A stretch of DNA of 64,000 nt from an uncultured Nitrososphaeraceae archaeon (GCA_963765895.1 CAVXZB010000019.1:160001-224000); one strand, 5' to 3'; shown: positions 32,901-33,652, counted from the first letter of the stretch. Notes: generated by a model not told the origin, from the sequence alone. Numbers and translations: made by a program.

Positions 32901-33652
32901 CATCGATAGCATATTTTCCATATTACAGACAATTACACTATTTTTCGAATAATCACGCATAACTTCGTATTCAATCTGCTTCCAATGGCCGACGTATTTC
33001 TCTATAAGCACCTGTCCAACCATACTCAGAGAAAGGCCTCGTTGGACAATTTCTTGAAGCTCGTATTCATTATATGCTACTCCGCCTCCTCTACCACCTA
33101 GGGTATAAGCGACGCGGATCATTACTGGGTAAGCGATACGATTTGCCGTCGTAAGAGCCTCCTGCACGGAATAACAGGGCGCACTTTCCAAAACTGGAAC
33201 TCCTGATTTGATCATGGCTTCTTTAAACAATTGTCTGTCCTCAGTGACTTCTATGCCCCTTATCGGAGTACCCGATACCTCTAATTCCATATTTTTTCAA
33301 GATGCCATTTTTCTCTAATGATACGCCGCAATTCAGTGCTGTCTGTCCGCCAAATGCCAGCATAATGGCATCAGGTCTTTCAGATTCTATAACCTGTTCT
33401 ACGTAGTCGGTAGTAATCGGTAGCAAATATACCTTATCTGCGAATTTCTTGTCAGTTTGTATAGTAGCTATATTCGGATTGATTAGAACACTTGCTATCC
33501 CGTCTTCACTTAGAGCTTTGAGGCATTGCGATCCGGAGTAGTCGAATTAGCGATCGATCATTTTATAATAACCAACTTTCGCCTGCTTCTCCAATCTTAA
33601 TTGCCCCACTGCCGAGGACGAGTATCTTTCTTATAGTATCATCCCGTGTCAT
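29953..33652 (-). CDS. carB: carbamoyl-phosphate synthase large subunit, with a candidate 31-nt intron and several single-base frameshifts
   Basis: start [107 protein letters not shown]-terminal MGS domain. Confidence 0.93.
33547..33577 (-). other. candidate bulge-helix-bulge (BHB) mRNA intron in carB, 31 nt
   Basis: pre-mRNA GCA[GGCG]AA^A-GUUGGUUAUU-AUAA-AAUGAUCGAU-[CGCU]AA^U-UCGAC; cutting after the 2nd nt of each bulge rejoins GGC GAA UUC GAC (G-E-F-D). Confidence 0.82.

Follow-up and report, generated by a model that had tools for sequence, protein, structure and literature searches.

How can full-length CarB, the large subunit of carbamoyl-phosphate synthase and an essential enzyme, be made from a carB gene whose reading frame is interrupted after 25 codons? 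The question arises in a stretch of 64,000 nucleotides from an uncultured Nitrososphaeraceae archaeon (GCA_963765895.1 CAVXZB010000019.1:160001-224000; 'the window' below means this whole stretch, and G000 the genome it belongs to), where 31 nt separate the first codons of carB from the remainder of the gene. We conclude, with a probability of about 0.94, that these 31 nt are a bulge-helix-bulge (BHB) intron that is spliced from the carB pre-mRNA and conserved across ammonia-oxidising archaea. An earlier note on this DNA had already proposed a real spliced mRNA intron, and the proposal gains support because the site is conserved, the stems covary, excision restores the frame exactly, exon codons are constrained, genes for the splicing endonuclease EndA and the ligase RtcB are present and an RNA-seq contig of a relative (run X6) lacks the intron.

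The layout was re-derived from the minus-strand sequence and agrees with the one first described, in which carB starts with ATG at 33652, is interrupted by exactly 31 nt and resumes out of frame at FDYSG; the 29-aa product predicted for unspliced RNA was likewise recovered as an open reading frame (ORF).

33578..33652, minus strand: carB exon 1, 25 codons, from ATG at 33652 to GAA at 33580-33578
33547..33577, minus strand: the 31-nt element read here as a BHB intron, excision of which puts GAA next to TTC in frame
29953..33546, minus strand: carB exon 2 (remainder of the gene), reading TTC GAC TAC TCC GGA (FDYSG) from 33546, in another frame than exon 1
33563..33652, minus strand: ORF of the unspliced RNA, 29 aa, ended by an in-frame TAA inside the insert

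The insertion site lies between codons 25 (GAA) and 26 (TTC), in phase 0. In intron-less relatives the 25-residue N-terminus encoded by exon 1 is continuous with FDYSG. Upstream of exon 2 in G000, a TAA stands directly before FDYSG in its frame, and the next in-frame start is found 40 codons downstream.

The elements of the fold in the window are as follows.

33580..33583, minus strand: 5' strand of the central helix H, GGCG in exon 1, pairing with 33549-33552
33549..33552, minus strand: 3' strand of the central helix H, CGCU at the intron end, pairing with 33580-33583
33577..33579, minus strand: 5' bulge AA^A, predicted cut 33578/33577
33546..33548, minus strand: 3' bulge AA^U, predicted cut 33547/33546
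33553..33576, minus strand: intron hairpin h', 10 bp with loop AUAA, 33576-33567 pairing with 33562-33553
33585..33594, minus strand: exon-1 arm of the exon-exon helix h (RNAalifold columns 14-19 and 21-23, see below)
33533..33543, minus strand: exon-2 arm of the exon-exon helix h (from RNAalifold, the exon codon comparison and the pairing counts in alignment A2, see below)

All pairings named in the earlier note are present in the window, namely GGCG with CGCU, the bulges AAA and AAU, the 10-bp stem with its AUAA loop and an exon-exon stem of UUGGAG (33594-33589) with CUCCGG (33538-33533). The minimum free energy (MFE) structure of the single sequence shifts the register by one base. Support for the fold comes from the comparison with relatives, since the single sequence could not decide. 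A search of Rfam gave no match at E values up to 1 in 33300-33800; a group I or group II self-splicing intron or a curated RNA family was rejected on this ground and also because inserts of 17-52 nt, the range seen among relatives, are far too short.

Archaeal EndA cuts BHB motifs after the second nucleotide of each bulge. Applied to the insert, this rule joins GGC GAA|TTC GAC; in G000 and in every intron-bearing sequence parsed it brings GEAGE and FDYSG together in frame, so that the restoration of G-E-F-D claimed at first for the window is true of all of them. In the proposed mechanism, GGCG at the end of exon 1 would pair with CGCU at the end of the intron, giving a 4-bp central helix with a 3-nt bulge on each strand; the intron would fold into the hairpin h' and the two exons would pair as h. 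A two-subunit EndA would then cut after the second nucleotide of each bulge, RtcB would join the exons, and the spliced product ...GGC GAA|TTC GAC... would be translated into full-length CarB. That EndA and RtcB act on carB RNA, and that splicing occurs in this organism, is what we infer from the observations described below.

Conservation and covariation of the insert

Forty relatives were searched for carB, with a match in 38 (the two genomes without one are 75% and 77% complete), and the DNA upstream of FDYSG was read in all 38. An insert between GEAGE and FDYSG is present in 31 of these 38 order-level relatives (25/29 in a first set and 6/9 in a second). Within the family of the window it was found in 23/23 genomes with a match, including 5/5 of the genus of the window, where it measures 31-32 nt. 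Other families, with one genome each, have it in 8/15, and the seven remaining genomes read GEAGEFDYSG straight through. From named public loci, 80 were taken and 79 could be parsed; 43 of the 79 have the insert (some named loci duplicate genomes in the relative set). The labels of intron-bearing loci are Nitrososphaeraceae, Nitrosocosmicus, Nitrosopolaris, Nitrosopumilus, Nitrosarchaeum, Nitrosotenuis, Nitrosotalea and Cenarchaeum, and the 36 loci without insert belong to some Nitrosopumilus and Nitrosopelagicus, one Nitrososphaera, Nitrosocaldus, all Bathyarchaeia and bacteria. In all, the insert was seen in no fewer than 66 distinct sequences; they stem from independent assemblies, some of which are closed genomes. 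Aligning carB 5' ends across relatives, a check that the earlier note had suggested, thereby revealed inserts at the same site with covarying stems.

Insert lengths range from 17 to 52 nt. Among the 66 distinct sequences the length modulo 3 equals 1, 0 and 2 in 24, 23 and 19 cases, and all in-frame inserts contain a stop codon. The longest introns seen, of 52 nt, occur in two metagenome-assembled genomes labelled Nitrososphaerales/Nitrososphaeraceae (L075 and L090); their stems of 8-11 bp carry loops that are 23-29 nt long and very rich in AT. A protein in ENA, P0018, from a Nitrosocosmicus-like carB (nearest locus L078), carries the 9-residue insertion SRDQISGRH between GEAGE and FDYSG.

Alignment A2 holds the 66 distinct intron-bearing sequences, with gap-free flanks. 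All inserts parse alike, as GGCG AA^A, hairpin, CGCY AA^U. Independently of this parse, RNAalifold found in A2 the central helix (columns 25-28 with 77-80), a 3-nt bulge (columns 29-31 unpaired), the intron helix h' (columns 32-35 with 73-76) and an interrupted exon-exon helix (columns 14-23 with 86-96), with 5 nt unpaired at the 3' site. When the structure was made explicit, 98.7% of 1056 pair cells were paired, compared with 17-51% when the partners were slid by 1-3 columns, and 55 double-change cells were observed, compared with at most 11 in the slid controls. For four of five measures 0/500 shuffles matched the observed values; the fifth, the number of pairs with a change on both sides, was reached by 6/500.

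The four pairs of the central helix are formed in 58, 66, 66 and 66 of the 66 sequences. Its outermost pair is G-U in 30 sequences, G-C in 28 and G-A in 8. Compensatory change from GGCG/CGCY to GGUG/CACC is seen in L026, which is in the alignment, and to GGUG/CACU in G025. The hairpin h' has 3-11 bp; its pairs 1-3 are formed in 66/66 sequences and pair 4 in 63/66, with three to five different pair types at pairs 2-4. At the 5' site the bulge is strictly 3 nt in 66/66 sequences (AAA 47, AGA 17, AAU 2). The 3' bulge reads AAU in 48, AUU in 11, AGU in 6 and GUU in one, and it is 3 nt only if columns 24 and 84 pair (one A-U or G-U pair), which is possible in 49/66 sequences; beside it, h offers at most one pair, followed by the interrupted but conserved exon-exon helix. 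Of the two 3-nt bulges described for the window, therefore, the 5' one proved strict throughout and the 3' one did not. By a definition given in the excerpted text of PMC7714728, each of the outer helices h and h' of a BHB motif has at least two Watson-Crick pairs next to the bulges. The carB motif has the strict form at its 5' site and a relaxed one at its 3' site; as a whole it belongs to the relaxed (HBh'-like) class.

Two further features of the exon pairing were seen. RNAalifold adds a distal exon-exon helix (A2 columns 2-5 with 105-108, in the window about 33607-33604 with 33524-33521), one pair of which is G-C in 45 sequences, A-U in 9 and broken in 11; this helix may be real, or it may be a by-product of correlated AT-rich codon choice. 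Only in L029 (G037) do the exon codons of an intron-bearing sequence deviate (ATA GGT ... TCA). On visual inspection they can pair if the register is moved by two bases, and may represent a compensated variant of the exon-exon helix.

The helix-forming codons of the exons are nearly fixed in the 66 intron-bearing genes (GGA in 61, GGC in 65, TAC in 65, TCC or TCT in 65). The corresponding codons are mixed in 38 intron-less genes, some of them from Nitrosopumilus lineages that branch among intron-bearing ones. Synonymous sites in the exons are thus constrained by RNA structure, and only where the intron is present. At the protein level, the first residues of exon 2 (F1 D2 Y3 S4 G5 S6 Q7) are invariant in 21 sequences and Ser6 is encoded by six different codons; therefore, the first codons of exon 2 are translated. 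As no in-frame start is possible between the intron and F1, translation must enter from exon 1 on RNA free of the insert. The CarB profile TIGR01369 matches the start of exon 2 (1.4e-44) at profile positions 25-117, and the approximately 24 positions missing upstream are supplied by exon 1.

To follow the history of the element, a tree of 116 CarB N-terminal segments (430 aa) was built with FastTree and rooted on five bacterial rows, with G000 and two short rows left out. All 73 intron-bearing rows fall inside one clade of 90 rows (support 87), with intron-less rows nested among them. Parsimony requires 11 changes, of which well-supported branches force at least four; the tree is that of a single gene and has many weak branches. 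Such a distribution would result if the intron had been gained once, long ago, near the base of the ammonia-oxidiser order and had later been lost exactly several times. For the intron of the crenarchaeal gene cbf5, excerpts of PMC2738675 likewise describe a patchy distribution, propose one gain and several losses and suggest that the losses came about through reverse transcription of spliced mRNA. The sole intron-less row in the Nitrososphaeraceae clade is L058 (Candidatus Nitrososphaera sp. FF02), on a very long branch of 0.62 and with only 348 aa open; its gene may have been replaced or damaged, or may have lost the intron exactly. Three labels conflict with the tree, probably through binning or labelling errors: L073, labelled Heimdallarchaeota, groups within Nitrosopumilaceae, L056, labelled Nitrosopumilus, groups with Nitrosocosmicus, and L089, labelled Acidoferrum, groups with Bathyarchaeia.

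Splicing machinery, RNA and protein evidence

The BHB parse was applied as a control to 14 tRNA intron calls of at most 70 nt made by aragorn in G000 (introns were called in 20 of its 42 tRNA genes). It reproduces the aragorn boundaries for tRNA-Ala (two copies; H 4/4, h' 8 bp) and tRNA-Cys. The other 11 calls, which are non-canonical or doubtful, gave no clean parse.

Two EndA-family genes (PF01974, above cut-off) and one RtcB gene are present in G000. One of the EndA-family genes lies in the window.

57517..58071, plus strand: EndA-family gene, probably the catalytic alpha subunit (PF01974, 101.9 bits; TIGR00324, 103.2 bits with a cut-off of 59.6)

This gene aligns with the catalytic C-terminal half of fused endonuclease models, and the second one (contig 5, L117:1396-2052) with the N-terminal half of the same models and weakly with beta-subunit models. 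Such a pair, judged by its similarities, fits the (alpha-beta)2 type of enzyme. According to excerpts of PMC5829648, this is the type found in Thaumarchaeota, and no types other than (alpha-beta)2 and epsilon2 cut relaxed BHB motifs. The enzyme type is relevant here because no more than one pair closes the 3' bulge of carB towards the exon. The probable catalytic subunit sits in the same 64-kb window as the intron-bearing carB, with the beta-like subunit on contig 5. RtcB (contig C23:211513-212824 of G000; L118, L119) is found as two overlapping pieces in different frames, covering model positions 1-88 and 78-426, a split for which a frameshift error in the assembly is the probable cause.

RNA-seq runs were searched with L028, an intron-bearing relative with a closed genome and a 21-nt intron at 1480-1500. 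No run contained half of the L028 words; parts of them occur in four true RNA-seq metatranscriptome runs. Study P1 contributes three runs, probably of DNA, and in X1 the intron is uncovered. Contigs were compared with L028 at 80% likeness. One contig of run X6 (depth 20.5, L028:1453-1576, 3 mismatches in 103 nt) lacks exactly 21 letters at 1478, a gap that equals the deletion of 1480-1500 because AA is repeated at both borders.

Protein fragments were taken from the 120 best database matches to exon 2 of the window. Among these matches, 104 cross the junction; the nearest compared locus is intron-less for 97 of them and intron-bearing for seven. Of the seven, only P0001 (JGI, a 1312-nt contig) is close enough to its nearest locus (98.8%) to be informative. 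It reads across the junction and agrees with G002, a genome of the same genus with a 32-nt intron, in 25/25 residues of exon 1 and 81/82 residues of exon 2, after which its tail is frameshifted. A metagenome scan with P0001 did not return its own contig; it gave 80 loci, all at most 79% identical and mostly unrelated intron-less carB genes, which were not used.

As for the gene copy itself, G000 is an assembly of 4.9 Mb in 88 contigs, 88% complete, with one carB locus. Other matches are distant ATP-grasp paralogues. The earlier note had named an intact second carB, with the present copy decaying, as an observation that would speak against splicing; no second carB was found in G000. TIGR01369 also matches the C-terminal 634 aa of carB (5.6e-189, profile positions 542-1051); as the gene is fragmented, no single piece reaches the cut-off set for the whole protein. 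The closest relative, G004, is 96.4% identical over 4.2 kb, has a 1197-aa open frame from exon 2 and carries the same 31-nt element. In comparison with G004, 1-nt indels stand isolated at five places in the window, one in carA (near 33937) and four in carB (near 33279, 32653, 32336 and 31919), all of them outside long homopolymers. Substitutions between the two genomes number 69 at the third codon position versus 24 and 19 at the others, and 68 are synonymous versus 35 non-synonymous. The carB gene is under purifying selection, and, judged by the substitution pattern, the 1-nt indels are probably assembly errors. The distinction first drawn between the 31-nt element and small indels elsewhere is upheld against these four carB indels and the one in carA. 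G000 and G004 also show an in-frame difference of 12 nt near 33774, in 3' carA or the spacer before carB, where a TAATAC-type tandem repeat differs in copy number. Long open frames (at least 300 aa) take up 0.265 of the genome, a value that, for want of a proper control, was not used as evidence on assembly quality.

Weighing the explanations

Several observations count against a spliced intron or temper the case for it. Taken alone, the window sequence folds with an MFE of -16.7 kcal/mol (z = -1.88), and 9/200 shuffles fold as well. The outermost pair of H is G-A in 8/66 sequences, and two Watson-Crick pairs closing a strict 3-nt bulge are lacking at the 3' site. The relatives share ancestry, so counts among them are not independent. 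In P0018 the insert, 27 nt long, in frame and free of stop codons, is read through, and hence an unspliced product in some lineage is not impossible. The four other frameshifts in this carB mean that decay of this copy is not formally excluded. The RNA evidence consists of one assembled metatranscriptome contig from a different genus, and none of it comes from the organism of the window; runs X4 and X5, of the same study as X6, show intron-containing contigs only. The junction of P0001 is known at the protein level alone, and an origin of the X6 contig, or of P0001, from an intron-less strain cannot be strictly excluded. Still, an intron-less contig in X6 and intron-containing ones in X4 and X5 (from which, as contigs, no ratio of spliced to unspliced RNA can be read) match the picture expected if spliced mRNA occurs together with its precursor RNA or with DNA carried over.

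If the intron is spliced, the level or activity of EndA and RtcB might set the amount of CarB and hence the supply of arginine and pyrimidines. Such a control point would suit the yield of only 29 aa from unspliced RNA, the long retention of the element with exon bases constrained to stay cleavable, and the coexistence of intron-keeping RNA-seq contigs with one intron-less contig; for the cbf5 intron, too, a role as negative regulator is proposed in the excerpted text of PMC2738675. Against it, the element was lost repeatedly in Nitrosopumilus/Nitrosopelagicus and in one Nitrososphaera and is absent in Nitrosocaldus (the carB intron is dispensable, because several lineages have lost it), its loop sequence is unconserved and offers no obvious site for a ligand or protein, and retention is also expected of a neutral element removable only by exact deletion. 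We hold control of this kind to be unlikely. A little more doubtful still, by our estimate, is a regulated checkpoint that would tune carbamoyl-phosphate synthesis through the rate of EndA and RtcB, by analogy a prokaryotic counterpart of HAC1/XBP1 (compared below); if it existed, the frozen exon codons would reflect selection keeping the switch functional.

Alternatively, the insert may be kept in the mRNA and skipped by ribosomes, with the hairpin serving the bypass. Programmed translational bypassing is known from phage T4 gene 60, where the take-off codon bordering the gap matches the landing codon. A stop soon after the take-off point and a stable hairpin do resemble a bypass element. However, the border codons in the window are unmatched (GAA at the 5' border versus CUA-A/UUC at the 3' border), gap lengths vary over 17-52 nt, the conserved helix between exon 1 and the 3' end of the intron across two 3-nt bulges has the geometry of an EndA substrate, and the X6 contig is RNA-derived and lacks the intron. 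Bypassing is very improbable on these grounds.

We give as little credence to a split gene, that is, a short N-terminal peptide and a large C-terminal protein, with the hairpin as an intercistronic regulatory element. Gene callers do produce such models, and P0006, P0009 and P0010 begin out of frame upstream and run into FDYSG. Yet no start precedes FDYSG in frame (in G000 a TAA does) and the next is 40 codons on, although the first residues of exon 2 are invariant; moreover, the CarB profile needs about 24 residues ahead of exon 2, and intron-less relatives encode one continuous protein.

Least probable of all, and close to negligible, is that the 31 nt are an assembly or sequencing error or a pseudogene lesion like the other frameshifts in carB: the five isolated 1-nt indels in carA and carB, RtcB in two frames and the completeness of 88% lend themselves to this view, but at least 66 distinct sequences from independent assemblies share the architecture and its covarying stems, the same 31-nt element stands in the otherwise intact carB of G004, and the gene is a single locus under purifying selection.

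Significance and relation to known introns

Read as a spliced intron, the carB element would be a further case of a BHB intron within a gene that codes for protein, in a different lineage from the one known, in central metabolism and in most ammonia-oxidising archaea, a group that ranks with the most abundant microbes of soils and oceans. Gene callers mis-model such genes, giving truncated or out-of-frame N-termini or a pseudogene (P0006, P0009, P0010, P0018), and this distorts pathway reconstructions and completeness estimates. The element offers a clean data set for intron gain, long retention and repeated exact loss, and shows codon choice under selection to preserve RNA structure. With cultured strains it can now be asked by experiment whether splicing controls a biosynthetic gene, and searching this phylum systematically for further genes interrupted by BHB elements seems worthwhile.

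In agreement with the statement of the earlier note that no description of a carB intron was known, the full-text literature yielded no report of one, nor of any mRNA intron in this phylum (subscription papers and supplements lay outside the search); a passing mention elsewhere cannot be excluded. The nearest precedent is the pre-mRNA intron of cbf5 (pseudouridine synthase) in Crenarchaeota, reportedly described by Watanabe in 2002. As presented in the excerpted text of PMC2738675, the cbf5 intron is likewise short and BHB-like, sits in a protein-coding gene, must be removed to obtain a functional protein and depends on EndA. The carB intron differs from it in residing in a gene of central metabolism and in the ammonia-oxidiser order, and in its own layout, at codons 25/26 in phase 0 with the central helix built from exon-1 codons. 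A table of Yokobori 2009, in the same excerpts (PMC2738675), lists no cbf5 intron for Cenarchaeum symbiosum or Nitrosopumilus maritimus. According to passages of a 2020 paper (PMC7714728), the cbf5 intron of Crenarchaeota was the only BHB intron reported in archaeal mRNA besides a Haloferax case in a 5' untranslated region (UTR). The latter, in the 5' UTR of HVO_1309 of Haloferax volcanii, resembles the carB intron as an mRNA substrate of the archaeal splicing endonuclease, whereas, on the same partial text (PMC7714728), it differs in lying in an untranslated region, in breaking no reading frame and in belonging to a euryarchaeon with another EndA type.

The BHB introns of pre-tRNA and pre-rRNA share with the carB intron the 4-bp helix, the two 3-nt bulges (the 3' one relaxed in carB), the predicted cuts after the second bulge base and probably the enzymes. 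In carB, by contrast, the host RNA is a messenger and the exon arms are coding, so that the structure is upheld through codon choice. In eukaryotic HAC1/XBP1, the endonuclease Ire1 cuts stem-loops in the mRNA and a tRNA-type ligase (RtcB in animals) joins the exons, in a regulated manner. Here too a short mRNA intron is removed and the reading frame of the product is changed, as proposed for carB, but the enzyme is Ire1 and not EndA, the motif is another one and the event is regulated.

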